This document shows positions 24,371 through 64,000 of a stretch of 64,000 nucleotides of DNA, piece after piece; within the stretch, counting starts at the first letter, position 1; each line of letters opens with the position of its first letter. The position numbers and the translations under genes were made by a program. Origin of the DNA: Balanoglossus misakiensis (lineage: Eukaryota > Animalia > Hemichordata); NCBI GenBank assembly GCA_040954595.2, contig CM082578.2:3206831-3270830 (forward strand), given 5' to 3'. Below the pieces are notes generated by a model, which had not been told where the DNA came from, did not search any database, and worked only from the letters and a program-made list of their open reading frames with translations.

Positions 24371-24558
24371 AAATGGAGGAGCAGCAACATGTATCTTCTA
24401 TTGTAAAAAATATTCAAACAATTTTTTGAAGAAAAAAAACTAAGTTTTGTGTGTTTTATTTGCCGTTTTTTCTCATTTTATCGACAACGCACTGGATCAC
24501 ATGTTTTAAAAATGCGTGCGTAACTAAAGTTCATTGAACTGGTGACTCAGTTATTGAT

Positions 24559-29648: not shown

Positions 29649-30560
29649 TGTAAGACAGACAGCCTCAGACGGGTCAGAGTTGTAGAGTGGCAACCCACTC
29701 CAAACATGTTTGTGGCTTTTATATTCGAAAACAGATGTAGGTATAGTTAACATGCAAATTGCAAAAGGGCCTACAAAATGAAGTATGTTAATTTGCAGTC
29801 TTACACAACTATGGGCCCATTTTTAGAAACGTCCTCGTTTCTTATAAATTGAAATTAAAGTACAAAACATCAAATTACAACTCAATAACAAAATCATCAA
29901 ACTGTCTTCGCGAATCTAATTTAAATCAAATATTGTAATATCAGTTAAGTTCATGGATCAATTCATTTTGGTACATAGTCCTGTAAATATCTTGGTGGCT
30001 TGATTCTTCTTTTCCCTGGTGCTCGTTCCCTCTGATATTGGTAAGGATGTGGAGCTTCTCTCGATCTCTGAATAACAGGCATTTCAAATGGCTGATGGCT
30101 AGGTGTAGGTTGAGGTGATGACGATGGATCAACTTCTGGTGTTCCGGGTGATGATGATGCTGGACATCTCGCTGGTGGTGGCGTCACACACGGTTGTGTA
30201 TTCTGTTGCTCAGATGATACAGGGCTGGATGTGATCGCACCTGGTTGCCGTGGTAATGACCCAGATAAAGCTGTATAGGCTGGACAGATAGTGGTCTGGG
30301 TGTCAGAACTATTACCAATGGGTTCTTGTATGTCTGGAGGTGTTCTATAGGGCTTCATTCTGTTAAAGTGTACAGTTTTTGGATGACTTCGCTGACTGTT
30401 AATGTCAATCACCTGATATATAATTCCATCTTCATCCATACTTTTGAATATTTGTATGGACCCTTCCATTTCGGTGCCAACTTCCGTCTTGCATTCGGTG
30501 AGTCATCTAACCATATAAGGTCACCTTGACTATATGACGCAAACTTGGTTCTGGAATCAA
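29649..30560 (-). mobile_element. Gypsy LTR retrotransposon 3' fragment: integrase C-terminus plus 157 bp 3' LTR
   Basis: LTR 29649-29805 is bounded by TGTAAGAC...GTCTTACA, with TATAAAA on the - strand. Integrase tail GDLIWL..RKLAPKWKGPY..VHFNRMKPY..RRIKPPRYLQDYV lies at 29963-30560. Confidence 0.85.

Positions 30561-30605
<45 letters not shown>
30561..30605. repeat. (AAT)15 microsatellite, distal part of the L2 element's 3' tail
   Basis: The same repeat resumes at 35041-35056 directly after the poly(A) of Tx1 'B' and is contiguous with the L2 3' end. Confidence 0.85.
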
Positions 30606-33600
30606 TTACCACCTGTTTTACAGAATGCGCGCAACAAACTCTTGCCAGCATATTACAACGCCAAGAAAGATGGTTGCCGTGTACAGTTACGAGTGCCACC
30701 ACGAGAATGCTGTGCCTTGCTTATTATTGACGGTAAAGTGAACAGACCCTTAGAAGCTGTAGCTTAATAAATAATGTAGTTGGGTTAAGTTTACGGAGTT
30801 TGTTTTTACGAAGGTTCTGTGTGTTCATTTTGCAGTATTTTCATATGGGTATTTGCGGGGTTGGAGACAGTCTATTCTTCGGCTTTGTTTATCGGCGCCT
30901 TTTCTCTCCTTCCTCTTGTTTCCCCCCCCCCCCCTGTTGTGTTTTTGTGTGCTTTTTTTTTCTTGTCTTTTTCGTTCCTCATGTGTGTCGTTGATAATTG
31001 CTCCTTATTTGTTTTCCCCTCTTTGGTATCATGGTCAAAAAAAAATTCCTATTGACAATTTCTCTATGCTTTTTATTTTTTTTTTATTTTTCATGATTCT
31101 TTCTTTTTTTATTCCATTTTCCGCTATATATGACTGGTGTCTGTAAGATTGATATTGCCTCCTACAACTGTAATGGGCTAGCTAACTCAGTTAAAAGAAG
31201 GGAGATTTTTACTTGGTTGCGAGATAAATCACACAACATTTATTGCTTACAAGAAACCCACTCCACTGAACGCAGTGAACAGTATTGGAAAGCTGAATGG
31301 GGTGCTGACATCCTGTTTAGTCATGGCACAAGTAATCGGAGAGGGGTTGCGATTCTGTTTAAAAATAATTTCTGTTATACCCTTCACCAAACTAGGGTTG
31401 ATTCTGAAGGCCGTTGGATCATGATTGATATCACTGTTGATGCGCAGCGGTTCATCCTTGTTTGCATTTATGCCCCAAATGATGACACTCCTGTTTTCTT
31501 TGAGAATATTCACTCAATTCTTTTTAATTTTGGTAATGATACGTCGAATATCATTATACTTGGAGACTACAACACTGTTCAAGATGACTTGCTTGATAGA
31601 GTTGGCACTGGTCGGGGTAATTATCATATGAATGCATTCAAAAGCATTAAACAATTAATGCATTCGTGGGACTTATGTGACATCTGGCGGTTACGTAATC
31701 CAACTGTGAGGCGTTACACCTGGAGAAGAGGCAATCGTGCCAGTAGAATAGATTATTTTCTAGTGTCTTTTTGTCTTTCTTCAAAAATTATGAATGTTGT
31801 CATTGGAGAAAGATATCGTTCTGACCATCATCTCATTAGTATTGGTTTTGAAACTAGTGTTTTCACGCGTGGCAAGGGTTACTGGCATTTTAATAATTCT
31901 CTTCTTAACGATCAGAATTTCATCACCCAGTCAAAACGCTTTATTTCAGATTTCTTTAGTGCTAATAATGGTTCTGCGAATCCAAACAGTGTTTGGGATG
32001 CTTTCAAATGTGCTTTCAGAGGTCATTGCATTAAATTCAGCTCAATTAAACAGCGCAAATGTAAAGAAAAGGAGAATCGTTTAATTGAGGAAATTAATGA
32101 GCTTCATACTATTATTGACTCGGGTTCTGATCATTATACAGATGACAATAATCTGCATTTATCGATGAAACAGGACGAACTTGAGTCTATTTATGCAGCT
32201 AGAACAGCTGGGCTTATGATTCGTGCCAAAGGTAGATGGCTTAATTGGGGTGAACGTCCTACAAAATATTTTCTTAATCTTGTTTACAGAAACTATTCAA
32301 GAAAAAATGTTATGTCTCTTGTTCGGTCTGACGGGACTATTTTATCAAACCCAACAGACATTTTGAGGGAAGAAGTTGTATTTTTTAAAGAACTTTATGC
32401 ATTTGTAGACCCTCCAGTCCCTCTTAATCATGAGGACTGTTCCATTTTGTTTACCGATAACCATGTGAATCGGCTGAGTAGTTTTGAACAGCATATATGT
32501 GAAGGCTCTATTACTGCCAATGAATTATGGCAAGCCATTAAATCCTTCCCAACTGGAAAATCTCCAGGGTTGGATGGTATGCCCGTTGAAATTTATAAAG
32601 CTTTCTTCACAGAATTGTGCACACCCATGCTTAATAGCTTCAATTATTCCTTTGAATGCGGCTTTTTATCACCTTCACAGAGGGAGGGGCTATTATCACT
32701 TCTCCTAAAACAGGATGCGCAGGGTAATGATAAGGACCCAACTTTTTTAAAGAATTGGAGACCTTTAACTTTACTTTGTTGTGATACTCGCATTCTTGCC
32801 AAAAGTCTCTCATTGCGTGTTAAACGAGTTATTACTACAATTATCAATGAGGACCAAACTGGTTTTATTCATGGTAGATTTATTGCAGATAATATTAGGA
32901 GGCTTTTGGAGATTATAGATTTGTACGAGAAGAATAAAGAGCCAGGTTTGGTCTTCATTGCTGATTTTGAGAAGGCTTTTGACAAATTGAGATGGGATTT
33001 TATTCTTAAGAGCTTAGAGTATTTTAATTTCGGTCCTTCTTTTCTGTCATGGATAAAAGTTTTGTATAACAATATTTCCAGTCGTATTATCAATTATGGT
33101 CATATTTCTGACAATTTTATTCTTTCTCGGGGTGTTCGACAGGGTTGCCCACTGTCGCCATATTTATTTGTAATAGCCGTAGAAATGCTGGCAATACGGG
33201 TGAGAACATGTAATGACTTTAAAGGTCTAAAGACAGGCCCTATCGATAACAAGATTTCACAATATGCCGATGACACAAACTTTCCTAGTCAACCTGATTA
33301 TTGTTCTTTTAATGCTTTGCTTGATATTTTGAAAGTGTTTTCTACATTCTCTGGTCTGAAACCCAATTATGAGAAATGTAAGGTATTGCGCATTGGGTCT
33401 CTTAAAAACACAGATTTCCATATCAATACCGCTTTTCCTTTAGTATGGACTGATGGCGATGTTAATGTTCTTGGTATTCACATTCCAAATAATTCATCAC
33501 ATCTTGTAACTGTCAACTTTAATCCTCGGCTTGAAAAGGCGAGGAAGATACTGCAGCCATGGCAGGGTAGGGGGCTCACTTTTTATGGGAAAGTAACAAT

Positions 33601-35040
33601 TATGAAATCCTTGGTCAATTCACAGTTTACTCATCTTTTCATGTCTCTACCATCTCCTGGCAATGACTTCTTTAAAAAGTATGAAACTTTAGTTTTCAAT
33701 TTTTTGTGGGGTGGTAAGCGAGACAAGATTAAGAGGAATACCATCTACAATTCATATGTAAATGGGGGTCTCAATTAGACAAATTTGCCTGCCTTTAATT
33801 TGACGCTAAAGACAGCCTGGTTTTTGAGGATCATGTGCAACAATAGTTTATTTTGTAGTAAATGGTATAAATTTGTTCTTTCCAGTTTTGGTGGGCCCCA
33901 AGTGTATTATGCCAATTTAAAAAAAGATGATTTTCATATTTTTAACCCCATTAATTCTGTTTTCTTAAGACAAATTTATTCAGCATGGCTGCAGTATAAT
34001 ACCACTACAGTATCTGATAAAGACGATGTATGCCAAGAACTAATTTGCAATAATTCTGAGATACGAATTAGTGATAAGCCAATATTGTGGAATAACTTTT
34101 CAAGGAATGGTGTTATTTTTATTAATGATCTTATCGATGCTAATTGTAAGTTTTATAATTATGAGCAGTTTACTACAATATATGGTAATATTTGTACACA
34201 ATTTCAGTATAATCAATTATTATGTGCAATACCACTTGATTGGAAAAATATTGTACAGAATTCACACTCATCCAAACTACTGGTATGTAAGCCTAATTTT
34301 CGAAATCCCAATTGTTTGTCTGGTAAAAAAACTCAATAGAGAGATGTACACTTTTTTTCTGAATTTACAAACACCACAGGAGCTTTCTCCACACATAATA
34401 CGTTATTGGTACGATGTCTTTGATGAAGTATTTTCCTTAAAAATTGTGTTTTCGCTTCCTTTCAAATTAACAAATGATATTAAGCTTTGGAATTTTCAGT
34501 ACAAACTAATAATGAAGATCTTGCCTTCAAACCGCATGCTTTACAAATGGCGAATAATTGACTCCCCACTTTGTATTTTTTGTAAAGATGTTGTAGAGGA
34601 TTATTACCATCTTTTTTGGGATTGTATTTATACTAGTCGGTTTTGGATTTCAGTGAAAGAGTGGTTTTTTACTGTTACACTTAATACACTAAGGTTAAGT
34701 GCAATGTATTGTATTCTGGGTAATATAGATGAGGGGGGTAGTCAACTTGCAAATTTCATTCTTTTGATTGGACGTTCTTATATTTTTAAATGTAAAGTGT
34801 CGAATGTTTTGCCAAACATGCTTCAGTTTAAATCATATGTGAAATCTATTTATAAAATAGAAGATAATGTAGCCACTACAAATGATAGACAGGGGATACA
34901 TCTAGAAAAATGGGGAGCTTTTGTCAACTTGTTCGTTGATTAGTGTTCTTTTTGTGGTTTCTTTCTTTTTCTTGTCTTTGTCGACTCTTTTGTTTTTGTC
35001 CTGTATTTTTGAAATGAAAAAAAAAAAAAAAAAAAAAAAA
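30606..35040 (+). mobile_element. Tx1/L1-clade LINE 'B', young, 5'-truncated in ORF1, nearly intact ORF2
   Basis: ORF1 tail 30606-30767, then a pyrimidine-rich spacer. ORF2 31130-34943 has APE endonuclease (SYNCNG, LQETH, GDYN, RIDY, SDH), RT (GVRQGCPLSP, QYADD) and CxxC..H..C zinc knuckle (CIFC..HLFWDC). Only two lesions are visible: TAG at 33776-33778 and a frameshift in the A-run near 34325. A24 tail at 35017-35040. Confidence 0.96.
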
Positions 35041-38000
35041 TAATAATAATAATAATATATTTTTATACAGCGATTTCCATCAGTAAAAACATCAAACCGC
35101 TTTACAATAAAAAACAACCACTAAACTCATAAAATACAATATTAAAACCGTGAAGATACACTGATAAAATGGCCTACTCGGCATTAAAACTTTATAAAAA
35201 TGTTATTAGAAATAACAAAACAGTGACTAAGTCATGTACTTCTTAAAAAGGTAAGTTTTGAGAGATGTCTTAAATGCAGCAACGGTTGGTGACAATCTAA
35301 TTTCTTTTGGTATAACATTCCAAAGAGTTGGCGCTGCATTAGAAAATGAACGGTAACCAAAGTGTTTCTGCTCCCAGTTCACTGGCTCCAAAGTTGGTGT
35401 GAACGCTGAGCGTGTCAACCGTTTAGGTTCATGAACTGTGATCAGATCAGACTGATAGGCAGGAGCTTGGTTGTGCAATATTTTATAGACAAAAAGAAGA
35501 ATTTTGAAATTGATTCTAGCATGGATAGGCAGCCAGTGTAGCTCCCGTTTCACTGGTGTGATATGCTCATGCCTTTTTGTGCGTGTGACGAGACGTGCAG
35601 CAGAATTTTGAAGTAACTGAAGTTTATGAAGGTGCTTATCTTCGATACCAAATAGCAAACTGTTGCAGTAATCCATGCGTGATGTAACGAAAGCGTGCAC
35701 AAGTCTTTCAGTGTTTGAGCGATCTAAAACATTTCTAATACGTCCAATTCTATGGAGAGCAAATGACGCAGACTGACATAATTTGACAATGTGAGTACTC
35801 ATATCTGCAAAGCGGTTTAAATAAGCACCAAGATCGCGGACGGATCTAGACGTGGTAACATTAGTATTCCCTACTCTGAGAAATGGCAGGTCAACAGATT
35901 TCTTAAATTTTGAACGAAAATGGATCACTTCTGTCTTGGCATCATTTAAAACCAAACGATTTTCAATCATCCATTGACGAATATCATCAATACAATGTTC
36001 AACCATAAATGACGAGTCCGTGGCACGTTCACATATCAAATACAACTGAGTATCGTCAGCAAATAACATAAGATCCAAATCATGTCTAATGATTATATCC
36101 TCTAATGGTGCTGCATACAGTGTAAAAAGTATTGGGCCCAGTCCACTTCCTTGAGGGACGCCACAATCAAGATTACTTGGCTCTGATAATATACCATCAA
36201 TACACACAATCTGTGTTCTATCACATAAGTACGACTCAAACCAAGCAAGTGCCTTGCCCTTAATACCAAACCTATGTTCTAAACGATACAGCAAAACTTT
36301 GTGATTAATAGTGTCAAAAGCTGCTGTCAAATCAAGCAGTGTAAGAATAACTTCTTTATGACTATCAGGAGCACGTAAAATGTCGTTTTGAACTCTCAAT
36401 AAGGCACTTTCCGTGCTATGATGATGTCTATAAGCAGACTGATATTTAGAAACAATGAAAACTGACTAAAATACTCATCAAGTTGAATTAAAACAACTCT
36501 CTCCAGAAATTTATGTTCGAAAACAAGATTATACACCGGCCTATAATTAGATAAAACATTGGAGTCGAGACTGGACTTTTTCAATAAAGGGCGGACTAAA
36601 GCCTGTTTGTACATTTTAGGAACTGTACTCGAATCGAATGAAGTATTAACTATTTTGACTAGATCATGAATTACATTTGGAAGACACAATTTCAAAAGTT
36701 TAGTCGGAATTGGGTCAAGTGCACATGATTTTGAGTTCATGGCATCAATAATTTTAGTAAGACTGGCCATGGTGACAGAAGTGAACTCTCTGAAGGAATA
36801 CGTTGGTACTTCATTGACCTTTTCTAAGGTCAAAGATCTAGGAAATTGCTTCTGAAGCTTGGATATTTTACTTGTAAAGAAATCGGCGAAAGACTGTGCC
36901 TACTTTGCTTTATCATCATGAATGGGTAAAATTGATGCGGAGGATTTCTTTTCGCCTATTAAATCATCAATAATGCTAATTATCATATGCCTATATTCAC
37001 GTGCCCATGGAAAGTCTATGGGGAAAAGCGCCCTCACATCCGACGTGCAGTTTTTTTGCTTATCACGCCCCGGCCCGGTGACCATATTTGGAAGACGCGT
37101 TCAATATCCGGATCTAGTTTTGTGTTTATTGCGCGAGATTCGAAAGTTGTCGTTGCTACGTTCGGAATATTCAGTGACTAGTGCACTTGCAGTTTGTGTA
37201 TGTCCTATGCCGCTACTGAATCCTATCATCTCCCGTAATCGCTGCATGTTGTAGAGCTTTATTTGGAAATATGAATAGTAAAATTGATGATTTGATCTGA
37301 TTAATGTGTGACTGTCGGCGTCGATCGTCGCGAAGGAAAAAATAATGTTTTGCTCGCGCTCGGGTCTGTGAGTTCGAGCGCGTCTATATCTCACGTGCAA
37401 TAGAATGTAAACAAATGACATCGTGCTTATCAATCCGCAAGAACTGGAGGAATGCGCCTCTATGCAACGGGATAGATCATTTCAAAACGATAGATAAACA
37501 CGTAATATTTACATTCCATAATATTACAGAATGTGTATTTTATTAGTTTCTTGTAGATTATCGTTCAATAATGCATATGATAAAACCTTTACGGCCCTGA
37601 TACGGGTTTTGCGGCCCTCGGTCGTACGGCGATTCTCGCCCTCCCTGCGGTCGGGCGCTTCCGCCGTACGACCTCGGGCCGCAAAACCCGTATCAGGGCC
37701 GTAAAGATTAATAGTTTAGTTTGATCAGCTGTTTCAATACGAGTCCTATGATACAATGCAAGTGCTTCATTACAGAGTCTATTATAGTTTTCCCATAAAG
37801 ATCTGTCTATTTACTTCGAGTTGATGTCTTCTCCATTTCCTTTCAACTTGCCGAAGAGTACGTTTTTCTTCACGCAGAGTCTCATCATACCAGGGGCGCG
37901 CGGTTTGTCACGAACGATCTTTACTTTGGCCGGAGCAACAATATCAAATACAGATGACATGTCCGCATGAAAGCACTCAGCCAAATCATCAACTGTGGTA

Positions 38001-39086
38001 CAGTCCGTTATTTTGGCCTTTTGAATACTATTTATGGCCTGACTGAGGTCATCAGAGGTTACAGATGAAATATTACGTGAAATGCGTTTCCTATGGTGTA
38101 CAGATGGACGTGACAGATCAGTAACAAAACTGATTAAAGTATGATCGGATGGGAGAATGTCATTCAGTTGAAATTTCATGACACATGGTTCATTTATACG
38201 AGTAATTACTAAATCCAGTGTGTGCCCCCGTTCATGAGTGGGGCCCCGTACATGTTGTTTAAGACCAAGACTGTCTATCAAGTCAATGAATTGACGGGTA
38301 TCGTTGCGATTTTCATTTTCTACATGGAAGTTGAAGTCCCCTAATAAAATTAAGCGACCTGGTGAAATTACAATACTCTCCATGAATATTGCAAACTCAG
38401 TCATAAAAGTCGACACATTCAAACCATTTTTCCGAGACGGTGGTGGACGGTAAACAATGACAAGATGAACAAGATCACGTGGAAGAGTTATGTAAATATT
38501 CAAGTGTTCAAGTGATCGGAAAGTAGTCTTCATAGTCTTATCCGGCTTGGCCGTAAGGTGTTCACTCATGATGGCTGCTACACCACCTCCCTTCTTGTCC
38601 GACCTTGGGTTTTGATGAACTTTATATCCATAGAGGGCTGAGCGGATTTGAGGGACGGTACACTGATTGGACTTGGCTATCCAGGTTTCAGTCACCACAA
38701 AGACATCAGTCTTGCTTTCAATGATGTGTCCACACACGGTAGCAATTTTGTTGTTGATGGACCTGGCATTCCACAACCCGATTGAAAGGTTCTTACATTG
38801 ATCATAAGATGACGATCTAACAACTTTAGTTAAGTTATCCAGATTTACCAGACGCTGATCACTAGTTGTTGGTTTTGGACGATATCCAATGACAGATCTT
38901 GCGGAGTCGGTCCTTTTAGGAATCACCAGATTACTATAGTTGACACCAGAAGTCGGCATGAAGTTGTCAATTCTCCTGTCAAGCTGACAGTTGGCAAGTC
39001 TATTATGATTGAACAGGTGGTGAGGTGTACGGATAGTTTTGATTGGGCGTTGCTTCAATATACCAGCTGTCTTCTGGATAGATCAT
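35041..39086 (-). mobile_element. L2/Crack-clade LINE 'C' (ORF2 with frameshifts, (ATT)n tail)
   Basis: Endonuclease 37811-39058 (WNARS, VTETW, GDFN, GHTLDL, SDH). RT 35227-36833 (DLTAAFDT, GVPQGS, LFADD, SRMDYCNSLL, LHWLP, FKTSLKTYLF). 3' end gtaaagcggtttga...tataaaaatatattattatta. Interrupted at 36980-37709. Confidence 0.93.
36980..37709. mobile_element. 730 bp non-autonomous insertion with asymmetric inverted repeats and terminal hairpin (Crypton-like)
   Basis: Removing it restores the L2 frame (ADQTKL-F-SIIDDL). 11 bp inverted repeat TTATCATATGC (36980) / GCATATGATAA (37573), followed by a hairpin with 45 bp arms at 37587-37706. At most 1 bp of target overlap. Confidence 0.8.
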
Positions 39087-40090: not shown

Positions 40091-41825
40091 GTGTTCCCCG
40101 CAAATTCCGTGCCGACTTTCTCACCGCTTCTCTATCTTTATAGAAGTTGAACTTTGCTACGATCGGACGAGGCGTAGTGCGTCCATGAATGTGCCGAGTT
40201 TTTTGTGTTTACAACTCAACTGCAGAAAACGCGGAGACAAGTACTGCCATGCAAGGAATATGGATTCCCGTCTATGTTGTGACAGTGCAGTGGACGTGAT
40301 CAAACAAGACTGAAGACTTTTTTCATTGGTCTATAGGTATCACGTGACAACCAGCAAGTTCAGAGTTCAGGGTTCAAAGGTTGAAAGAATCAAATCGTTT
40401 TCGTTTTTTTTTAAATCCGATTCAAAATCACAATTAAATTGTAAATTTCAAAAGAAATCATAATTGAAAACGAAAGAGTAACTGATAATGCGTGCACCTT
40501 ATCAGGCTGCATTCAATATTACATGAGCAAAACAGCTCAGCATTTCACCTTGGTGTTTGCAAATTGTTCCTTTCACCCATATACCAAACCACTGTTCTCC
40601 AAATATGCTGCTCATCATCCACTACACACTGAGAGAGCACCAAGTGTCCTTGACGCTATTTTTATCCAGTTGCCGCTCTTTAGATCAATGTTCTCTCGCT
40701 GGAATGAGGTTTTCAATGAAGTGAACACATTCAATCAAGCGTCGTCCTGATAGGTTTTTTGGAAGTCGCTGTTCTGAACGCGAGCGCTGCGTGCACGCGA
40801 AGGTCGGTTCTCCCGGGAAAATGAAATTAGCTAAGAATTTGCACTGCAAAGACACGGTGTTCCAAATAAGTGTTTTTTCATGACTTACGGAATTGTATAG
40901 TGATGCCTAGAACACATAAACGCCTGAGCGAGTAAGAATTTTTACCCGTTAGAATCTGAATAATGCAAATGTGTTATGCAGATGATGTGAGAGGCGGTGG
41001 AAAATGACAAATTGTCTTTCTAGAATTGCAGCTTTACTTCTGCTGTGGGAAATGTTGGTAAAGATGTATGCTTATGTTGTGGATCTGCCCATGACGTCAC
41101 TGACCCTACCCACCCCTTGGGCGGAAATAGTTTATTCTACCTCTTCCACCTTAGATCAGAGACCAAGCAGCACGCCTTTTACTGACCTCCAAGAGACCCT
41201 TAGAAACCTTTGATTAGTATCCTTTACCCACTAAGGTGAGACATCGGCAATCACAACATTGGCGCTGCGAGCCTGTGTTCGAGCCTAGTGCGGGGAAACG
41301 CTTTTTTTGATACGCGGGGGAGAGAGAGTGGTGTTTCTGTGTGGTCGGAATTCAGCAATTGCGTCCGGGTGCGACGTGGGGTTTTTCTGGGCATAGGAAA
41401 AACGGGATATCGTGGATTGCCGGGGCCAGAAGACACTGGGCAAACTCTCGGGGACCGCGGGGATTGTTTAACGAAGTTTAGGGACGGTACTGGGTAGGTA
41501 CCGGAGTTTCGGAGGTAGTTTGAGTCAATTTTCTGTGTTTTTCCCCACTACCGCGTGGGCGGAAATTCGGCTGCCATCTTGGCATGTAGGGCCTTTTTCC
41601 ATTGTCAGAGGGTCTTCATTCCCAAAACGTGTTTGGGGTAGCGGTCGGCGCATGCGCAGAACTTTTCTCTGTACGCGTAGAAGTTTCTTTTGTGTGGGAG
41701 TGAGCTTTTGTGTGATTGAGATTATTCTTGAAAGGGTTCACTCGTGTAAACCCTACGTGTTGTCTCGAGTGTGAGGGAGAGTGTAGTTTATAATTAGTGT
41801 GTTTAAAGGGCAAATAGATCACATC

Positions 41826-43819
41826 ATGATGGCCTCCAGGGGTCCAGTTTATATCAACACATGTGACCTCATGACCCTTAAGACCTTGCCAGGGGTAGGT
41901 AAAAAGTGGCAAAGGCAATCTTGAAAGCCAGAAATAGATACGGGAGGGTCTCAAAAGAAATTTTAGGGGAAATCCCCCGTCTCAGGCTCACACCTGAATT
42001 TCACGAAATGGTGTCTTATGAAATAAGGGAAGCTGAACTTCCCCCAGTTCCGACCCACTCAAATATCTACAGTAGCAGTAGTGATGAGGACCGGCAAACA
42101 CCGGCCTGCAGAAATACACGCAAAACGGGGAAATTCCAGGGGCCACCGGAAATCCCAGTTTCAGAGCTGGCTAGCAAAAGTGATAAGTCATAATTGGAGT
42201 ATGGGAGGGGGATTAGTACAGGGCCCAAGACAACCCCATTTCCCAGGGGAGGGGAGAAAATGGGCCAACATCGAGAATTGGATAGTGGGGGTTACCCTCC
42301 CACAGCAAGTGAGTACTGCAGGGGGTCAGGTAGAGCCAGCGATGGGGAGGGGGGTCCCGGGCCCAAATCCAGAAGTGCTTTGCGACGTAAGGTCCGTTTC
42401 TCACAAAATGGCCATGAAGGGTCAGACCCAAATGAAGGAGGAGGGAGGGGACCCAGAGACAGGGATAATTTCCACACGACAGAGCAAAGCGGTTACCCAG
42501 GGAATCCGGTTGGAATGTCTCCGCAATATCCACCAGAGAACTTCCCAAGGTATTTTACCCCACCGCCACCATATCCGATGGAGTCCACACTGCTCCCAGC
42601 CAGCCCCTACGAACACGCTGATTGGCGATTTCCCACTGAAAACCGTGGTGGCGCCCCTCCAGTACCGGGGACCCCCTATCCCACGTACTACGGCCCACCA
42701 TCTCAAATGGGAAGCAGCCCTAGCCCATACGCCCCCGCCAATGCCACCTGGACTCCGTCGTATGGGAACGTGCCGCAAAACCACCCTTATGGTGAATCTT
42801 CGTTCACAGGCATGAGGCAAGGTGGGGGCAGGGAAGGGCCCGCCTTCGGCTCGAGGATGTTTAATATGCCCAAAACTTTAGTTTACACTGAGGAGAGAAA
42901 ATGGAGCGTGTTTTTTGATAAATTCACCAGTTATGCGGGTGCCCAGGGATGGACAGAAAGTGAACGCAAATGTTGCTTGTGCTTTTGTTTAGACGGCGAC
43001 GCCAGCGAATTTAACTCGATACTGCTCAGGCACGAGCAAAATATCAGCTACCAGCGGCTGGTCAGTAAGCTAGACAAGCGTTTTGGGCGCCAAGAACTAC
43101 CAGAGACCGCGCAGATGAGATTTCAGCAGTCCCATCAAAAAGAAGGGGAGTCACTCGAAAAATGGGCCGATCGAATCCTGTCCCTCGCGACAAACGCTTT
43201 CCCCTAACTGACGGAGCGCGCTATGGACCGTCAGGCAATAATGAAGTTTTGTCACGGATGCTCCGATCGCGAGGCAGGGCTTTACGTTGCTAACCAACGC
43301 GCATCCTCCGTGGAAGAGGCCATAGCCCAAATACGTTGGTTCCAATATAACAATCGCGAGATCTTTGGCCACCGAACCTCACGCAGGGAAGTAAAACGAG
43401 TAACATCTGAGACAGATAGCGACGACGAGTTCATACGCGTGCGATCAGCCACTCGGGAGCGACCCCCCAGAGATCGGGATTTATCACCCACCGACAGCGG
43501 AACAGGCTCGCGGGAGAGGTTTCGAACCCCACGTAACCTGAGTCCCAGTCCCGGGATAAATACCCTTAACGAACGAATGACTGAAATGGCCAAAACTTTA
43601 GAGAGTTTGAGAAAGACAGTGGTTGCCCTATCCTCACGCGAGGCAGGCCGGTCTCGGTCACCCTCCCCTAGGGGACGGGAATGCTTTAACTGTGGGGAAC
43701 CTGGACACTTCTGTAGGGAATGCCCCAAGGGAAGGGAAAGAGTGACCTCAGATTCCGGGGAGAAACGGGTAACATTCGCTGAGCATTTAAACGGGAAAGG
43801 GTCAGACCAGAGGGCCTAA
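41826..43819 (+). pseudogene. gag: Gag with N-terminal ComEA-like helix-hairpin-helix domain and C-terminal CCHC knuckle
   Basis: MMASRGPVYINTCDLMTLKTLPGVGK/VAKAILKARNRYG (1 nt lost in A-run 41901-41905), Pro-rich linker, capsid-like KWSVFFDKF..AGAQGW..LDKRFG..QKEGESLEKWADRI, and CFNCGEPGHFCREC. Two in-frame stops at 42191-42193 and 43205-43207. Confidence 0.85.
43786..43792 (+). other. Putative -1 ribosomal frameshift slippery site T TTA AAC (gag-pro junction)
   Basis: Fits the X XXY YYZ pattern in the gag frame; the -1 frame stays open from here into the protease ORF (43822 onward). Confidence 0.7.
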
Positions 43820-44585
43820 GTTTGACCCAGGAGCCACCAAAGGGCCCAATACTCAGAAGAAATGATCCCAAAGTGAAGGGGGGAGGAAATGGAATTGGCA
43901 GGGTGACAACACACACTGACACCAAGGGTTGTGCCAAAATCCAGGAAGGGGGGTCAGTGTGTCAGGCCACTTTAGATACCCACACTGACAATACATTGCA
44001 AGGGCACGGGTTCTATCTACACCCTAGGGATGCACGAACCGACGAACAGTACAACTCGTCGGGGGAGTCTTTGGACGAACAGGAGTATGATTCCCCGGAC
44101 ACTGATGAATCCACAGCAAATGAACCCCCCAGCGGTGATGACACCCAGCCCATAACTATATGTCAGTTAGTGTCAGGGTCTATGTACAGTGTGCCCATTT
44201 TAGTTGAAGGGATTAAAGTACAGGCAGTAGTAGACACGGCAGCAGAAGTCACCATCATTTCAGACCGTCTCTATAGCCGTCTTGGGAACCGCCCCCAGTC
44301 CTCAAAACCTCCATCATGCAAACTGCAGGGCGTGAAATGGAAATGAAAGCCAATAAAGTAGGTCCCTAGCGCCTGAAGTTGGGAAGGACCAAATTCACAG
44401 AGGATGTGTATGTAGCGCAGATAGGAGATGACATGTTGCTAGGGGCAGACTTTATGCGGAGAAGGAGAGTGATTCTAGATATGCGAAGAAATCAGTTGCG
44501 GTTTGGGGGTGAAAGTGTACACATGACATATGGTCGGCAAGGGACGAAAGGGAAAGTGGCAAAGGTTACATTGCCCAGACGACTG
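43789..44585 (+). pseudogene. Retropepsin (aspartic protease) region of pol, frameshifted and truncated
   Basis: AVVDTAAEVTII catalytic motif, then DDMLLGADFM..VILD after a frameshift near 44295. Similarity ends at VAKVTLPRR with no RT motifs following. Confidence 0.85.
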
Positions 44586-44741
44586 ATCCTAAGGCTCCTC
44601 ACGCTCCTGGTGGACCTGTCGCCGGCGGAGAGAGAAACCATCAAGAATTGGCCCCGAGGGAAACAGCCCCAAGCAAGCGCCGGAAGCCCAGAAGTGAGAC
44701 GACCAAGTGCGGCCTCACCAGCCAGGGGGCTATCCCAGGCT

Positions 44742-45105
44742 ATAGACGCCCACTTCCACCCGGACCACATGAGAGCCCAGGCTCACCGAAGCGAAGGTGT
44801 CACCACTTCCTGCTTAGGGAGCAGGGGTGGAAAGTGGCGGTCGGGCTTCACCCCAAAAAGGTAAAGAAACTGACAAGGGAGCTGATGCAGTAGATTCGTG
44901 GACTGGTAACTAATCCCCTGGTTCCGGCCATGGGCGAGATAGGCCTTGACAGAACCGTGCCCGTCCACGAATGGGGCCAACAGGAGGAAGCCCTCCGACA
45001 GCTGTTGGAAGAGGCACCAGAAGATAAGCCAGTAATACTCCACATCAGAGGCGCGAGGAAGGATCCACCCGCCAGTGATGTCCATGCCCTGGCCCTGATG
45101 TTGGT
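44742..45105 (+). pseudogene. TatD-family nuclease remnant inside the LTR element
   Basis: Ordered TatD motifs IDAHFHPD (HxH), VAVGLHP, AMGEIGLD, QEEALRQLL, KPVILHIRG. One frameshift/deletion after HxH and one TAG at 44891-44893. The later His and ETD motifs are missing. Confidence 0.8.
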
Positions 45106-46922
45106 GGGGATTTTGGGAGCCTATTTTGGGGGATGGGGGTACCAGGGGTTTTACCCGAAAGGCCAAATACATGTATAGGGGAAGGACGGGAACTAACTGG
45201 GGAATTTGGATCCAGAGGGAATTTGTATTCAGCAACGACCAGTGGGGCATATGCTGTAAAGCCCAACTGGAGGAATTTTTTGTCAAAAAGGGGAAATGAA
45301 ACAAACAGGCCGACCAGTGGGGCATACCCAGTAAAGCCCAGCTGGACATTCTATTTTTCTATTTTGTTATCGCTGTGTTCTATGTTGTGTTACCCCCCGG
45401 TGTTTTGGGGGAAGAAGACGAAGCCCTTCAAAATATGGTGGGGATGAGTGTTGTGGATCTGCACATGACGTCACTGACCCTACCCACCCCTTGGGCGGAA
45501 ATAGTTTATTCTACCTCTTCCACCTTAGAGCAGAGACCAAGCAGCACGCCTTTTACTGACCTCCAAGAGACCCTTAGAAACCTTTGATTAGTATCCTTTA
45601 CCCACTAAGGTGAGACATCGGCAATCACAACACTTATGAATTCAACACAGCACATATGGTCAGAAAGTATCTGCAAAATCTACCCAGAAACGTTTTAACC
45701 AGATAAATAACGAAGCTTTGCCGCTAAGGAATATGGCCGCCACTTTTGGAAAATGCTAAATTGTATGAAAAAGGTTCCATTTCCCACCTTGACCTCATCC
45801 ACTAGAACACTTGGATAGTGTAATTCCTTGGCCTTATGCACCAATGAATAAGGTACACTGTTCTGAATGGTATTTGTAAATGAAACACGTGATTCAGTAG
45901 ACTTTATATCAAAGCTTACACACATCAGGAATTTCTCATCTCATACTGAAGAGATGATTTGGTTCAGAATTCTAACCAAGATACAGAGGGAACATGAACC
46001 GTTTTCTTTACCTGTTATTGTTCGTTAACACTTTTCGTGGTCAATATTAGGATACATTTACAAACAATGGTATAAGTAGTTTTTAGTGATGGTCATGATT
46101 ACTTGTGATTTCTGTGGTTTATTTCTTCTCAAAGGCAAAGTTCAGTTCAGTTGATTTTGCATATTTCTTACGTTTGATTTCAGTTATTCAGGAAAAAAAC
46201 TATGCACAACTTGCACGGTTGTTTTTTGCCCCCAAAAGGGATGGAAATGGCGGAAGAGGGCTTCATCAATTAAATGTAATTTGATTCGTGGAAAATAAAG
46301 CGCGACACATACATAGTGAACAGTAAGCGTACGCTTTAATGTCAACCAGAATAATCCAGAGCAATCCAAGACAAACACATACAATTTGTTTTAAAGTTAC
46401 AGAATACTATAAGTCCACCAATTAATGCCAAGTACAATTACGGATTATTAAAATGGCAAGTGACAGTACTGTTTTTTACAAAAAAGAAATATTGATCAAT
46501 GTATACATGTATACATGGATAGATATCATATCCCGGCAGATTACAAAGAAATTAATTAATTACATCGTACATGTATTTCATGAACAAACTCAATCATAGA
46601 CGCATGCAACCAATTTACAAAATGCATTCTTTTTAAAGACATATCAAATTCTCAACGGAACGCTTGTCTTTCGGGAAAGTTATGGGCACCTCTAACTATA
46701 TAATGTATGATTTTTACATTTAATGCATTATCAAGAAAAATCGATTTCCAAAACGCTTATATGAACATCTCTTGCTTCATAAAGTCTAAAATAAATCTGA
46801 GAAGAAAAAACGAAATCATGTTGAATGGTACATCATTTGTTTGGAACTCTTCCATCAGCTGATTAGTCACTTTTGTAGACCAAACGGACGCCCCTGTGCT
46901 AAACGTGAAATCGTCCATCAGA

Positions 46923-51060: not shown

Positions 51061-51811
51061 CTGTATAAAGATTCGCTGATAAATGTTTATTGAAGTTTAC
51101 GATGTCTACAATGATTACTGTACAGTGTCTTTAGTGATCATCATACGGTGTATAATGATCTCTACAGAATGGCCTCATGACCAACCTGCAAAGTTTGCAT
51201 TATCGAAAAAAAATCGTTAACCGTGCAGCCATACCCTGCCTATATTTTCTAAAAATCGTTGAATATTAAAAGTCGAATTTTGTATGGGCATGATACCGAT
51301 AAATTTCCTACATCCTATGTGTATTATGCTGTAAGGCACATGTTGGAATGATATTGCAATGAGCGTTAGCTGTAAAGTATCATGCTCAAATTGCGCTTCG
51401 TAATTCAGACGATATAGCAGGTAAAGTTAGTTACCAAAACATAAAACTCAAACTTGACAAAATACCAGAAGTGCAAAGGTAGTGATTTTTAGCAGCATAG
51501 TGTAACCTTTGGGATAAGAAAACGCAAAAATACACACATTTTAGAGAAATGAGTTTCATGTTCTAGTTTTGATTCTGAGGAGGTATGTTGTTCTGGCCGT
51601 TATCACTTTCACCCAATCACTGCTGAGTGTTTTTCCCGCTCAAACTATATTTGCATACACAAATTGCTACTTTGGGGGGGGGGGGGTAGAAGGAGCCGTT
51701 AGGTTTTTGAATAGGCTTGTACATGTAGCTGACAAGACTTGTAAGCGTCCTTGCACGTGTCGTTCTGTTCTCTGTTAAACGTGTCGACACAATACTAGTA
51801 AACCGAATCTT

Positions 51812-54312
51812 TTGGTTTATGCGACACCAATTTGTTGTCTGTTCCAGTGGATTTTCAAAGAACCATACGCGAGGGAGTCCACGGCCTACCTAATAAATCC
51901 CCCACATTTTTGCGCCGAGACCAGGATAGACTCGAAGCCAACACAACGGAAGAGGGACACACTGAGGATCAATCATGCTGCCGCACCATTGTTGAAGCTC
52001 AGGAGATCACATCGTGGTCAACGTGGACAATTGACTCGACTACTCAACCGAGCTGAAACTTTCCTGTACAATTTTGAAGACGAAGGTATCGACAAAGCAG
52101 ATACACTCAACACACTAGAGGGGCCTGGCAATCAACTTTCAAGCAAGTATCGACTTCTCTCCGATCTTGAAATCAAAATACTAGAGTTGACAGACGATGC
52201 TCAAGTTGATGAAGAAAACGAAACTTCTGGTGATTACCAAGCATCAATTTTTGATCGAATCCATCGCATCACAACATTTGTGAGGAGAAATCGAATGAAA
52301 CCGTGATTACAGATACACATCAGAGACTAGATATTGTCAAGAAAGGCGGACCTTGCCTTAATTGCTTGGGTAAACACAGAGTTGAAGAATGTAAATCCAA
52401 ATACTCCCGCAGAATCTGTAAGAAACTCCACCACTCCACGCTACAACATAATACAGCTGCCACCGCAACGACTCCGACCAAGGGGTCAACCGACCGCGTC
52501 ATCTGCCCAGACACAACAAACGCACCGTAGCTTTTACCAAAATCTCTACATCTCCGGACGATAAGCCGCGAAACCCAGGACCGGTGTTACTCAAGACCGC
52601 GTTCGTTCCGTTGTCCGCGGGAAAGAATTCCCCCGTTCGTGCTGTCATATTGTTTGATGTGGGAGCAAACAAAACATTCATGACTGAGAAATTTGCTCCC
52701 ATGATGTCTGCAAAAATTACGCATTATGAACACATCAAGTCGTCTACTTTCGGTTACAAATCCTCAAATGTTCGCACCGTGCCGTTTACCGAATTAACGG
52801 AGCTTGAATTAAACGGGAATACTCCAACAATTGACATAATGATCACCCCTGAAATATCATCGGACTTTACCAACATCATCACCCACGAAATTCACAATTT
52901 TAGTCACTTGAAGGGTTTGCCGTTCGCTCATCCAGTCTTCAGTAATGAATCGTGGCCTGTGTACTAATGGTGCCGACCAGTATTGGAATTTTGTTGGCTC
53001 GCATGTTATTTCGGGCGCGAACGGCCCAACCACGGTATCGTCTAAGTTTGGTTATTTGCTTTCTGGGCCCGCAGGTATTCCCTGTAAGTCAGCTGATCCG
53101 AACGCGCGCATACTGCACGTGATTTCTACCAGATTGAAATCGACAAATGAATGGCCCAGTTCTGTGCTCGATACACGCGCACTACATTCCGGAACCGTAC
53201 CAAACGAAACCGACATGGTACACTCTCTTGAACAAAGCGGACTTGACATATACCCGGCGCAAACTCCGAGATTCCGCGTCCACTCAGGGACACCACTACT
53301 TCTTGAAGCGGAAGTTACTGCCACTAATTGATTGCAATGATTTCGGAAATTTTAATGAGGTCGATATTTCCCGATTCAACGCTTTGGATAAGTTGTTGCG
53401 AGTGACAACTTACGTTCTCCGATTCATCGCGCGGTTGCGGAAATCTACCTATATAAGGCACGGAAGAATGAACAGAATCGCAACCAACAAACAAACAAAC
53501 AAACAAACAAAAACAAACAAACAAACAAACAAACAAACAAAGTTTTATATAGCGCCAAAATCCAAAACAAGAAATTTTGCCAATGACGCTCATGGTTAAA
53601 CCACACTGTATGCTCTTTTGAACATATGAGTTTTCAGTTTTCTTTTGAAAGTCTTCAGGTTTGTATGACTATTCTGGCTGTAGTGTTCTGAGCTTTTTGT
53701 GTAATAAGGCGATTGTGTTTTCCGGGAGACCATGCAGGAGTGAGTTACAGTAGTCAAGTTTGGCTAAAATTCTCGTTGGTGATGTAACGTCGTATAGATC
53801 CAATTCGGCGAAGGTGACTGTCGATCGATTTGCAGGTGTACGAAGATCATGTCAATATTGCGAGCAGATTAAACTGGTGTGACAGAAGGGGAACCAATGT
53901 TGACACTGTTAACATGATCTGGTGAGCTGTTAAACTTGGAGTGAATCAGAAGCACTTCGGTTTTACTGTCATTGAGCTGGAGTTTATTATGGGTCATCCA
54001 TTCCATGATATCGAGAATGCAGGTTTCAATCGAAGACAGGGCTGAGGGAGAGTCACGATGAGAAAATGAAAGATACAGCTGGTTGTCATCTGGTGGAAAT
54101 GTAGACTGTGCTTGTGTCAAATTTCATAGTGGAGCAAGTTAAAGCTGTACAATACCAGTATTATGGGGACACTGTCCAATCTGTTAAGTTGAACTTGAGT
54201 AAACGTGCCCCTATCGTCCGACAACTGAACTTGTTCGTAGACGAAGATGACGTACTTCGTTGTGGCAGTAGAATTCATAATGCAGCGCTTGACTTCGTCA
54301 CGAAGTTCCCCG
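51812..54312 (+). mobile_element. Heavily deleted BEL/Pao LTR retrotransposon internal region
   Basis: Gag start (RGQRGQLTRLL), BEL knuckle CLNCLGKHRVEEC..ICKKLHHSTL, Pao protease LLKTA..LFDVGANKTF..GADQYW..SKFGYLLSGP, post-RNase H IDISRFNALDKLLRVTTYVLRF and LFVDEDDVLRCGSRIHNA..KFP. No RT and no LTR pair found. Confidence 0.85.
53481..54115 (-). mobile_element. L2-clade LINE 3' fragment with (TTTG)n tail inserted in the BEL/Pao element
   Basis: DDNQLYLSF..CILDIMEWMTHNKLQLNDSKTEVLLI, then FKRKLKTHMF. 3' end ggcgctatataaa followed by (tttg)n, seen on + as (caaa)n at 53481-53540. Confidence 0.85.
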
Positions 54313-54728: not shown

Positions 54729-57700
54729 GAAGACAGTTCTTTCGCTCTGCGTACGAGAAAAGGTATTCCCAGGCAGTGTAGATCGCGCGCAGAACACCGG
54801 GCAGCTTGTAAGCTGGGCCCGGAAGATGAAAGTACAACTGCCGTGTACAGTAATCATCCTTGCTCTCGTGGAGGCAGACCTCGATTCACGTCGTACATTT
54901 TATGAAGCTTTACAAAATGTCACTATATTCTGTGTTCGGACGGAAAGAAATTATAATCGACTAAAAGGAAAACTGAAGATGGTTCTTTCGCTTTGCGTAC
55001 GAGAAAAGGTATTCCCAGGTAGTGTAGATCGCGCGCAGAACACCGGGCAGCTTGTAAGCTGGGCCCGGAAGATAGAAGTACCACTGCCGTGTACAGTAAT
55101 CATCCTCGCTCTCGTGGAGGCAGACCTCGATTGACGTCGTACATTTTATGAAGCTTTACAAAATGTCACTATATTCTGTGTTCGATCGGAAAGAAATTAT
55201 AATCGACTAAAAGGAAAACTGAAGATGGTTCTTTTGCTTTGCGTACGAGAAAAGGTATTCCCAGGTAGTGTAGATCGCGCACAGAAAACCGGGCAGCTTG
55301 TGAGCTGGGCCCGGGAGATAGAAGTACAACTGCCGTGTACAGTAATCATCCTCGCTCTCGTGGAGGCAGACTGCGATTGACGTACATTTTATGAAGCTTT
55401 ACAAAATGTCAGTATATTCTGTGTTCGGACGGAAAGAAATTATAATCGACTGAGAGGAAAACTGAACATGGTTCTTTCGCTTTGCGTACGAGAAAAGGTA
55501 TTCCCAGGTAGTGTAGATCGCGCGCAGAACACCGGGCAGCTTGTAACCTGGGCCCGGGAGATAGAAGTACAACTGCCGTGTACAGTAATCATCCTCGCTC
55601 TCGTGGAGGCAGACTGCGATTGACGTACATTTTATGAATTTTTACAAAATGTCAGCATATTCTGTGTTCGATCGGAAAGAAATTATAATCGACCGAGAGG
55701 AAAACTGAAGATGGTTCTTTCGCTTTGCGTACGAGAAAAGGTATTCCCAGGTAGTGTAGATCGCGCACAGAACACCAGGCAGCTTGTAAGCTGGGCCCGG
55801 AAGATAGAAGTACAACTGCCGTGTACAGTAATCATCCTCGCTCTCGTGGAGGCAGACTGCGATTGACGTACATTTTATGAAGCTTTACAAAATGTCAGTA
55901 TATTCTGTGTTCGGATGGAAAGAAATTATAATCGACTGAGAGGAAAACTGAAGATGGTTCTTTCGCTTTGCGTACGAGAAAAGGTATTCCCAGGTAGTGT
56001 AGTTCGCGCGCAGAACACCAGGCAGCTTGTAATCTGGGCCCGGAAGATAGAAGTACCACTGCCGTGTACAGTAATCATCCTCGCTCTCGTGGAGGCAGAC
56101 TGCGATTGACGTGCATTTTATGAAGCTTTACAAAATGTCAGTATATTCTGTGTTTGGATGGAAAGAAATTATAATCGACTGAGAGGAAAACTGAAGATGG
56201 TTCTTTCGCTTTGCGTACGAGAAAAGGTATTCCCAGGTAGTGTAGTTCGCGCGCAGAACACCAGGCAGCTTGTAATCTGGGCCCGGAAGATAGAAGTACC
56301 ACTGCCGTGTACAGTAATCATCCTCGCTCTCGTGGAGGCAGACTGCGATTGACGTGCATTTTATGAAGCTTTACAAAATGTCAGTATATTCTGTGTTCGG
56401 ATGGAAAGAAATTATAATCGACTGAGAGGAAAACTGAAGATGGTTCTTTCGCTTTGCGTACGAGAAAAGGTATTCCCAGGTAGTGTAGTTCGCGCGCAGA
56501 ACACCAGGCAGCTTGTAATCTGGGCCTGGAAGATAGAAGTACCACTGCCGTGTACAGTAATCATCCTCGCTCTCGTGGAGGCAGACCTCGATTGACGTCG
56601 TACATTTTATGAAGCTTTACAAAATGTCAATATATTCTGTGTTCGGACGGAAAGAAATTATAATCGACTGAGAGGAAAACTGAAGATGGTTCTTTCGCTT
56701 TGCGTACGAGAAAAGGTATTCCCAGGTAGTGTAGATCGCGCACAGAACACCGGGCAGCTTGTAAGCTGGTCCCGGAAGATAGAAGTACAACTGCCGTGTA
56801 CAGTAATCATCCTCGCTCTCGTGGAGGCAGACCTCGATTGACGTCGTACATTTTATGAAGCTTTACAAAATGTCAGTATATTCTGTGTTCGGACGGAAAG
56901 AAATTATAATCGACTGAGAGGAAAACTGAAGATGGTTCTTTCACTTTGCGTACGAGAAAAGGTATTCCCAGGTAGTGTAGATCATGCGCAGAACACCGGG
57001 CAGCTTGTAAGCTGGGCCCGGGAGATAGAAGTACCACTGCTGCGTACAGTAATCATCATCGCTCTCGTTGAGGCAGACTGCGATTGACGTACATTTTATG
57101 AAGCTTTACAAAATGTCAGTATATTCTGTGTTCGATCGGAAAGAAATTATAATCGACTGAGAGGAAAACAGAAGATGGTTCTTTCGCTTTGCGTACGAGA
57201 AAAGGTATTCCCAGGTAGTGTAGATCGCGCACAGAACACCGGGCAGCTTGTAAGCTGGTCCCGGAAGATAGAAGTACAACTGCCGTGTACAGTAATCATC
57301 CTCGCTCTCGTGGAGGCAGACCTCGATTGACGTCGTACATTTTATGAAGCTTTACAAAATGTCAGTATATTCTGTGTTCGGACGGAAAGAAATTATAATC
57401 GACTGAGAGGAAAACTGAAGATGGTTCTTTCACTTTGCGTACGAGAAAAGGTATTCCCAGGTAGTGTAGATCGTGCGCAGAACACCGGGCAGCTTGTAAG
57501 CTGGGCCCGGGAGATAGAAGTACCACTGCCGCGTACAGTAAGCATCATCGCTCTCGTGGAGGCAGACTGCGATTGACGTACATTTTATGAAGCTTTACAA
57601 AATGTCAGTATATTCTGTGTTCGATCGGAAAGAAATTATAATCGACTGAGAGGAAAACTGAAGATGGTTCTTTCGCTTTGCGTACGAGAAAAGGTATTCC

Positions 57701-63700: not shown

Positions 63701-64000
63701 CAAATTGTCAGGGCATATTCTGTGTTCGATCGGAAAGAAATTATAATCGACTGAGAGGAAAACTGAAGATGGTTCTTTCGCTTTGCGTACGAGAAAAGGT
63801 ATTCCCAGGTAGTGTAGATCGCGCACAGAACACCGGGCAGCTTATAAGCTGGGCCCGGGAGATAGAAGTACCACTGCCGCGTACAGTAATCATCAACGCA
63901 CTGGTGGAGGCAGACTGCGATTGACGTACATTTTATGAAGCTTTACAAAATGTCAGTATATTCTGTGTTCGATCGGAAAGAAATTATAATCGACTGAGAG
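54729..64000. repeat. Tandem satellite array, 243/246 bp monomers, about 38 copies, continues past window end
   Basis: Repeating unit gaagatggttctttcgctttgcgtacgagaaaaggtattcccagg...gagaggaaaact. Two main variants: gactgcgattgacgtac (243 bp) and gacctcgattgacgtcgtac (246 bp). Most monomers carry one HindIII site. Confidence 0.99.

Follow-up and report, generated by a model that had tools for sequence, protein, structure and literature searches.

The window (the whole 64,000-nucleotide stretch of Balanoglossus misakiensis DNA analysed here) contains a real LTR retrotransposon, the features of which are collected in Table 1. A sequence-only reading had drawn it as a cleanly delimited element, and its limits stand: the two LTRs of 184 bp differ at two positions and lie between copies of a 4 bp target-site duplication, and contigs of sequencing runs X1 and X2 carry an empty-site form that joins position 41070 to 45633, skipping 4562 bases, which correspond to the element plus one target copy. 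Because the flanking sequence is itself repetitive, this empty site may be paralogous rather than allelic. The priming tracts claimed in the same reading fared less evenly, as the tract beside the 5′ LTR is primer-binding-site-like only, and the polypurine tract is weak. Together with the TG...CA termini, the short duplication and these tracts, a Ty3-type capsid and CCHC knuckle followed by an aspartic protease mark the copy as Ty3/Gypsy.

Table 1. Features of the LTR element and its insertion site, in window coordinates
Feature	Position	Strand	Remarks
Left target-site duplication, 4 bp	41071..41074		Same 4 bases at right end
5′ LTR, 184 bp	41075..41258	+	TG...CA
Primer-binding-site-like tract	41260..41272	+	TGG at its start, one base past 5′ LTR
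gag, broken	41826..43819	+	Frameshift near 41904; stops 42191, 43205
ComEA-like helix-hairpin-helix, Gag N-terminus	41847..42022	+	Over two frames; Pfam HHH_3, family profile
Gag capsid domain, PNMA/Ty3-like	42863..43357	+	Stop inside; Pfam PNMA 1e-8
CCHC zinc knuckle	43679..43729	+	Pfam zf-CCHC 5.6e-6
Predicted -1 frameshift signal	43786..43829	+	Slippery heptamer 43786-43792, hairpin downstream
Aspartic protease, broken	44188..44483	+	Frameshift near 44290, stop 44367; Pfam 1e-4, below cut-off
Deletion junction	44594..44595		Missing: RT, RNase H, integrase, PHD, first part of ORF3
ORF3 remnant 1	44595..44810	+	Zinc-helical domain end, linker, TatD H-x-H (44751-44759); tblastn
ORF3 remnant 2	44810..45106	+	TatD middle part; frameshift near 44810, stop 44891
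36-bp direct repeat, 2 copies, 89%	45236..45346	+	3′ untranslated part
Polypurine-tract-like stretch	45434..45448	+	Purines 11/15, weak
3′ LTR, 184 bp	45449..45632	+	TG...CA
Right target-site duplication	45633..45636		

Pfam was run on nine open pieces of the element. The helix-hairpin-helix (HhH) domain is split by a frameshift and scores E 0.011 against HHH_3, below the cut-off; its two parts cover positions 4-23 and 23-62 of the 63 in the family profile. The hairpin of the predicted frameshift signal folds with a z score of -2.1 (7 of 200 shuffles were equally good), and the identical slippery heptamer and frame relation recur in five of eight full-length relatives.

Every coding part of the copy is broken, by four premature stops and three frameshifts in all, and no profile match to reverse transcriptase (RT), RNase H (RH) or integrase (IN) was found anywhere inside it; lacking an intact gag and pol, it is not autonomous. 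‘Recent’, as the insertion had been described, is a loose label: the LTRs diverge by 1.1% (95% range 0.13-3.9%), and four stops exceed the 0.7 expected from the point estimate (P 0.007, against 0.27 if the upper bound is taken), an expectation that is approximate, one of five segments having been taken in the wrong frame.

The copy has also undergone two large deletions. The proposed order of HhH-Gag-CCHC, -1 frameshift, protease and TatD is right in its parts, but the protease adjoins TatD only because of the deletion at 44594/44595, where sibling contigs in the same organism part from the window copy on both sides and carry the parts that it is missing. Beyond the junction lies the remnant of ORF3, a third open reading frame. 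Its first piece matches residues 282-362 of the ORF3 protein P0004 (tblastn E 4e-6), and its second begins after an internal deletion with a frame change and stops short of the final His and of the Glu-x-Asp. Neither of the two outcomes that the sequence-only reading had named as refuting it came about: the match to TatD_DNase is significant (3.5e-8, model positions 80-135 of 253), although that of the window’s own HhH piece to HHH_3 falls short. Three of the eight active-site residues are gone, leaving an incomplete Class II TatD set. Word-index protein searches with the TatD piece and part of the capsid gave no match, which is weak evidence. Siblings in the window’s organism have lost TatD segments through several different deletions, and TatD is therefore dispensable in cis. 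The window copy is dead and internally deleted, and only a dead witness of its family.

The family itself is represented by eight full-length relatives, animal DNA in two bacterial bins (the Sedimenticola bins G001 and G002); all of them come from one animal source, two contaminated bins and collapsed repeat contigs, and none from the window’s species. Six of 14 genome-contig motif matches lay outside the Sedimenticola bins and were left out of the analysis, and a primer-binding-site and polypurine pattern search in the relatives was uninformative. The seven best of 25 listed matches to the window capsid are core TatD elements, and the eight best of 16 listed matches to its protease are the eight full-length TatD elements, which supports the proposed descent of the copy from autonomous Gypsy elements that have an HhH-Gag and TatD. 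In these relatives, gag with its N-terminal HhH is followed by pol, in the Gypsy order PR-RT-RH-IN, and by a separate ORF3 composed of a zinc-finger-helical domain without family match and TatD at the end; in 10 of 11 elements, ORF3 opens with its own ATG 24-311 bases beyond the stop of pol. HhH scores at Pfam E<=0.01 in seven of the eight and above the cut-off in three (HHH_3 down to E 8e-14, comEA 1e-9). The integrase ends in a PHD finger in seven of the eight, and in the window copy this finger is absent. Neither the PHD finger nor the ORF3 zinc domain could have been recognised in the sequence-only reading.

ORF3-type TatD occurs in 23 contigs of the two bins, which account for all TatD matches there. 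Sixteen have a pol 3′ end directly upstream on the same strand, one has gag-protease, one is ambiguous and five end too early; a host-gene setting was found in none of the 23. TatD, the zinc domain and the PHD finger were absent from 60 other LTR contigs, one of which carries HhH. The ORF3 of the relatives scores as TatD only, with no errantivirus-like env-type fusion glycoprotein. Baculo_F was scored by two other elements of the same bin, L181 and L222.

The predicted structure of P0004 resembles those of TatD enzymes, most closely 6l25 (E 2e-13), and all top 15 listed Foldseek matches are of TatD type, pointing to a TIM barrel. The best solved matches of the clade’s TatD are YcfH-type (2gzx, 6l25 and 1yix, E about 1e-17), with TATDN3 at 3e-5, and it scores below every NCBIfam cut-off. 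The zinc-helical domain, modelled at pLDDT 85 and pTM 0.78, gave no significant match in Pfam, PDB sequences or the Atlas, nor by fold, where the best Z was 4.1; it may still belong to a described family. The low-complexity N-terminus of ORF3 is variable. The TatD proteins found closest come from Ptychodera flava (54%), and the family is present in a hemichordate and several bivalves. Public databases label relatives, the bivalve ones among them, as host TatD/YcfH genes, and one Mytilus edulis gene model fuses a protease to a clade-type ORF3. Ordinary TatD loci, at least 80 of them with 26-39% identity, filled the metagenome scan; they were assumed to be bacterial and served as outgroup only. 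Viral contigs gave two distant loci (27%).

In a quick RT-RH tree (LG+G4, 65 rows; omitted were L095, whose pol is divided between the ends of its contig, L225 and RT-less contigs), all seven TatD rows fall in one clade of nine (SH-aLRT 97), to which HhH and TatD are both confined; the TatD label has to change twice on this tree, since neither L199 nor L200, the sister of L125, has TatD. Distances in integrase and TatD are correlated (Mantel r 0.68, p 0.0001, n 12), and r is 0.55 once L125 is left out. The clade’s TatD branch is separate from 30 bacterial TatD proteins (SH-aLRT 99), in a tree for which the window piece fills only 26% of the columns. The long-branch TatD of L125 type might have been captured independently, but we consider this less likely, because it has the zinc domain in common with the others (E 1e-21 to 1e-14). 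The dN/dS analysis suggested by the sequence-only reading returned about 0.13 for TatD in both unsaturated pairs, indicating purifying selection, and 0.24-0.41 for the N-terminal part of ORF3; pairwise tests gave no sign of positive selection on ORF3. All eight catalytic residues (H-x-H, H, E, H, H, E-x-D) are kept in 22 of 22 bin-derived ORF3s, and 103-109 of 112 database relatives keep the residues at the five later positions and the Asp. Co-inheritance of ORF3 with pol and purifying selection on TatD are thereby shown.

We are nearly certain of the copy’s anatomy, its two large deletions and clade membership, the three-ORF layout, the shared inheritance of ORF3 and pol, the selective constraint and the intact metal ligands. 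We also consider it likely that this decayed Ty3/Gypsy copy stands for an intact clade in which an HhH-Gag and a PHD-ended Pol are accompanied by a separate TatD ORF3, probably a nuclear accessory nuclease. An autonomous relative would have mobilised the window copy, or its parent, in trans. ORF3 would be translated from its own start and, for that reason, would not be carried into particles within Gag-Pol. By analogy with other Class II TatD enzymes it may have 3′-5′ exonuclease or AP-endonuclease activity, with a predicted role in clearing single-stranded by-products, RNA or DNA, that arise as the element is transcribed, reverse-transcribed or integrated. That its substrates are intermediates of the element itself or R-loops in germ cells is a guess, to which we give somewhat less than an even chance.

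Identity between elements is 45-57% for TatD against 78-90% for RT and 71-85% for integrase, and this faster divergence means that a host-facing role fits at least as well as one in core replication. ORF3 might then be a counter-defence or transmission factor, destroying nucleic acids that set off host sensing or small-RNA silencing, or aiding spread between cells or hosts. Its position in the env slot, its variable N-terminus and the occurrence of the family in both a hemichordate and bivalves are consistent with such a role, as is the hydrolysis of extracellular traps by TatD orthologs of parasites, described in PMC10085689. However, the low dN/dS of both parts of ORF3, the pairwise tests and the fact that TatD follows integrase in its divergence instead of being exchanged make this explanation unlikely. 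More doubtful still is the joint DNA-binding and DNA-processing module of the sequence-only reading, in which HhH-Gag and TatD would cooperate in the particle. All eight full-length TatD elements have an HhH-Gag, and both traits belong to the same clade of nine, but shared ancestry is enough to explain this; the two domains lie in different ORFs, at the N-terminus of Gag and the end of ORF3, L199 has an HhH-Gag (Pfam 1.4e-9) without TatD on a contig closed by terminal repeats, and the zinc domain of ORF3 could itself target the protein. A single capture of host DNA by the window copy, or a neutral passenger, has almost nothing left to recommend it: the TatD piece is fragmentary and broken and databases name its relatives host genes, but pol-linked ORF3s, same-organism siblings that run on into the missing parts, purifying selection and intact active sites refute it at clade level.

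A predicted nuclease conserved by purifying selection throughout a clade points to a step, or a host barrier, in retrotransposition that has gone unrecognised, and the accessory nuclease that we favour could be assayed as an isolated protein. The literature search, which covered paper listings and the openings of abstracts, found no description of a TatD ORF or an HhH-Gag in an LTR element, although Repbase, Dfam, GyDB or the wider literature may already include these families; TatD, PHD and ORF3 are absent from the main text of PMC6238403, and TatD, PHD and nuclease from that of PMC13524379. A broader proposition, that this is an old and undescribed marine-invertebrate Gypsy clade whose HhH-Gag, PHD-integrase and new zinc fold accompany an active TatD, possibly from germline TATDN2, that resolves the element’s own R-loops or cDNA intermediates or blunts host sensing, and that many bivalve and hemichordate ‘TatD’ genes are these elements, falls just short of an even call. 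In the gene sets of Ptychodera, Mytilus, Pinctada and Argopecten, the expanded ‘TatD/YcfH’ families probably consist of mis-annotated transposon ORFs. Hundreds of animal retroelements lie in at least two public bacterial bins.

Few LTR retrotransposons are known to have retained any enzyme beyond PR, RT, RNase H, integrase, dUTPase or env, and most Gypsy elements replicate without a TatD-like enzyme. Chromoviruses carry a chromodomain at the integrase C-terminus; the Pol of our clade likewise ends in a chromatin-reader-type domain, with a PHD finger instead. The Gag domain is like the ComEA HhH by profile (Pfam HHH_3, TIGR01259), and by this resemblance its fold likely binds DNA, although it lies at the Gag N-terminus, in the matrix position, and its second hairpin looks degenerate by eye. 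The Juno and Vesta elements of bdelloid rotifers, as presented in PMC5408684, likewise join Gypsy-type gag and pol to a non-env enzymatic ORF3 after pol, in their case a DEDDy 3′-5′ exonuclease with intact catalytic residues and a role described there as unknown. Their nuclease is DnaQ-like, whereas ours is a TatD TIM barrel of unrelated fold, accompanied by a zinc-helical domain, HhH-Gag and PHD-tailed integrase; according to that paper, their evolution within genomes does not differ significantly from neutrality, whereas the TatD clade is clearly under purifying selection and its ORF3 diverges together with pol. TatD activities and the R-loop role of TATDN2 are covered in PMC10085689, PMC10711561 and PMC12709183. 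The long disordered N-terminus and C-terminal TatD of TATDN2 (PMC12709183) recall our ORF3, a likeness of architecture alone. With the Class II (HxH) enzymes YcfH, YjjV, TATDN2 and TATDN3, as set out in PMC10085689, the clade shares H-x-H, the other metal ligands and the fold, but its enzyme is retrotransposon-encoded, multi-copy and on a branch separate from bacterial TatD.

The window is animal DNA, rich in repeats, and the LTR element within it is a real feature, the copy present here being dead. The LTR pair with 2/184 mismatches and the 4-bp duplication that a sequence-only reading had reported were both recovered. In contigs of two public DNA runs from one sample, an element-free form joins 41070 straight to 45633, and one contig spans the left flank–LTR junction; because the flanking DNA is repetitive, the empty-site form may be a paralogue. 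Pfam searches of nine open pieces of the element matched HhH (E 0.011, under the Pfam cut-off), capsid, CCHC, protease and TatD (E 3.5e-8, model positions 80–135 of 253), which is the domain order originally claimed, and gave no match to RT, RNase H or integrase in these pieces, with which the family profiles agree. The flanks (table) are a high-depth repeat in the public sequencing runs X1 and X2.

Sibling contigs, which carry other copies of the element in these runs, have different letters at three of the four premature stops (among the rows listed, the fourth stop lying outside them) and read differently at the first two frameshift sites. The siblings part from the window sequence at 45106 and, approached from either side, at 44594/44595; judged by eye, their loose ends run on into the pol linker, the zinc domain of ORF3 (a separate third ORF after pol) and the next TatD motif. 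These divergence points and continuations show two deletions in the window copy, of which the first took RT-RH-IN-PHD and the front of ORF3, and the second about the last 40% of TatD, including three active-site residues. Different, additional TatD deletions occur in other siblings. The window copy is unable to encode a working nuclease, and it, or an ancestor of it, was probably mobilised by help in trans. Such heavy decay sits uneasily with an LTR divergence of 1.1% (0.13–3.9%). Five bases are absent at the slippery site in high-depth sibling contigs of X1 and X2, a loss that would, by arithmetic, bring protease into the Gag frame; capsid and protease likewise share one frame in contig L137. 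Such a single frame may recur among non-autonomous Gag–protease derivatives.

A motif scan gave 14 matches in bacterial genome contigs, eight of them from two bins (G001 and G002) whose records are titled MAG: Sedimenticola sp. RT matches number at least 216 in the bins and integrase matches at least 144, so we take these contigs to be animal repeats binned along with bacteria. Complete animal retroelements of both LTR and LINE kinds are numerous, and one bin-derived protein, P0162, was deposited as a bacterial ‘TatD family hydrolase’. Among 28 TatD matches in the bins, four are of ordinary bacterial type and 24, on 23 contigs, are of ORF3 type. The end of pol lies immediately upstream on the same strand in 16 of the 23; five others are too short, one is ambiguous and one, L137, is an independent gag–protease–decayed-TatD deletion derivative whose architecture equals that of the window copy. 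The layout gag / PR-RT-RH-IN / ORF3 is complete in eight elements (ORF3 of L140 is interrupted by a stop), bearing out the proposed origin in a Gypsy lineage with HhH-Gag and TatD. HhH begins Gag in 8/8 by the family's own profile (by Pfam, 7/8 at E≤0.01 and 3/8 over the cut-off), a PHD finger ends Pol in 7/8, and the window's slippery heptamer and −1 frame relation recur in 5/8. Ten of 11 elements give ORF3 an ATG of its own, located 24–311 bases past the stop of pol. Full-length TatD-bearing elements are the best matches of the window capsid and protease pieces.

The window TatD piece, read through its stop, had 326 matches among 1.84 billion representatives (E≤0.001). Among the 20 of 150 matches looked up, most of them without a name, the closest were Ptychodera flava proteins (53–54%), and Pinctada, Argopecten and Mytilus were further sources; in a tree where it fills 26% of the columns, the piece and the P. 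flava proteins form one group (SH-aLRT 93), a placement suggestive of a hemichordate host. TatD stood at or near the C-terminus in 58/58 longer matches scanned and, since none of the 58 includes RT or integrase, it is evidently encoded by a separate ORF. A Mytilus edulis gene model named ‘tatD’ is a retroviral protease fused to an ORF3-type TatD ORF. The zinc domain of ORF3 is helical in a confident structure model and had no family match in the sequence and structure searches; the TatD class follows the scheme in PMC10085689. Other third ORFs in the same bin's LTR elements encode Baculo_F env-like, BTB/POZ and C2H2-finger proteins.

Coordinates and layout of the element, of ORF3 and of other features in the window and bins
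Feature	Position	Details
Element	41075–45632	LTRs 184 bp, TG...CA, 2 mismatched sites; target duplication 4 bp
Flanks	40500–41074, 45633–45850	
Premature stops	42191, 43205, 44367, 44891	
Frameshift	near 41904	within HhH
Slippery site	43786–43792	
Frameshift	near 44290	within protease
Frameshift	near 44810	within TatD; ~35 codons absent relative to P0004
Gag–protease–TatD derivative	L137:1–4029	
ORF3 N-terminus		variable, low-complexity
ORF3 zinc domain		about 140 residues; C-x4-C...H-x4-H, conserved His-Trp-Arg
ORF3 linker		between zinc domain and TatD
ORF3 TatD		Class II (HxH); closest solved relatives YcfH-type
Other third ORFs of LTR elements	L181:6439–8865, L222:1342–3837, L171:7326–9089	
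Further such ORFs	L172, L176, L193, L196, L217	3′ of pol
ORF preceding HhH-Gag-Pol single frame	L199:1696–2475	259 codons; motifs resemble SGNH/GDSL esterase by eye, no such Pfam match
AMP-binding (acyl-CoA synthetase-like) gene pieces	24558–25694, 26960–27535	two, near-identical, intronless
LINE remnants	27868–39082, 51779–53599	both strands
Endonuclease-RT frame in one LINE remnant	31097–33778	893 codons
Apparent BEL/Pao remnants	near 52–53 kb	judged by eye
Satellite	54729–64000	38 copies, 243/246-bp unit, 94% matches, unit types alternate

Our data demonstrate the layout of ORF3, its inheritance and its constraint. TatD, PHD and the zinc domain were each absent from 60 further LTR contigs, hand-picked from the RT and integrase lists of the bins, and HhH was found in one (L199); of the 59 that carry integrase, only 14 extend at least 2 kb past pol, although terminal repeats close others. 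All seven TatD rows of a 65-row RT-RH tree fall inside one clade of nine (SH-aLRT 97), completed by L199 and L200; six of the seven form a core (support 100), and the TatD label requires two changes. The sequence-only reading had proposed comparing RT and TatD trees and estimating dN/dS on TatD: RT pairings are mirrored by TatD pairings, TatD distances correlate with those of integrase (r 0.68, p 0.0001, n=12), and dN/dS is 0.13 in both unsaturated TatD pairs and 0.14–0.15 in three near-saturated pairs. All eight ligands are kept in 22/22 ORF3 TatD relatives; RT and integrase are both better conserved than TatD.

Class II TatD proteins are described in PMC10085689 as two-metal 3′–5′ exonucleases that prefer single strands and also have AP-endonuclease activity. 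TATDN2 degrades R-loop RNA (PMC10711561) and is needed by germ cells (PMC12709183). With translation predicted to start separately, the ORF3 product would work in the cell, probably the nucleus, rather than as a Pol domain. Our favoured, still tentative, reading is that ORF3 might clear R-loops or single-stranded intermediates that the element itself produces. A putative role in counter-defence ranks below this clean-up and seems somewhat unlikely, and a putative Gag-coupled module is improbable.

The literature searched, with repeat databases and supplements outside its scope, yielded no description of a TatD ORF3 or an HhH-Gag. The nearest precedent is provided by the rotifer elements Juno and Vesta, whose ORF3, according to PMC5408684, is a DEDDy exonuclease.
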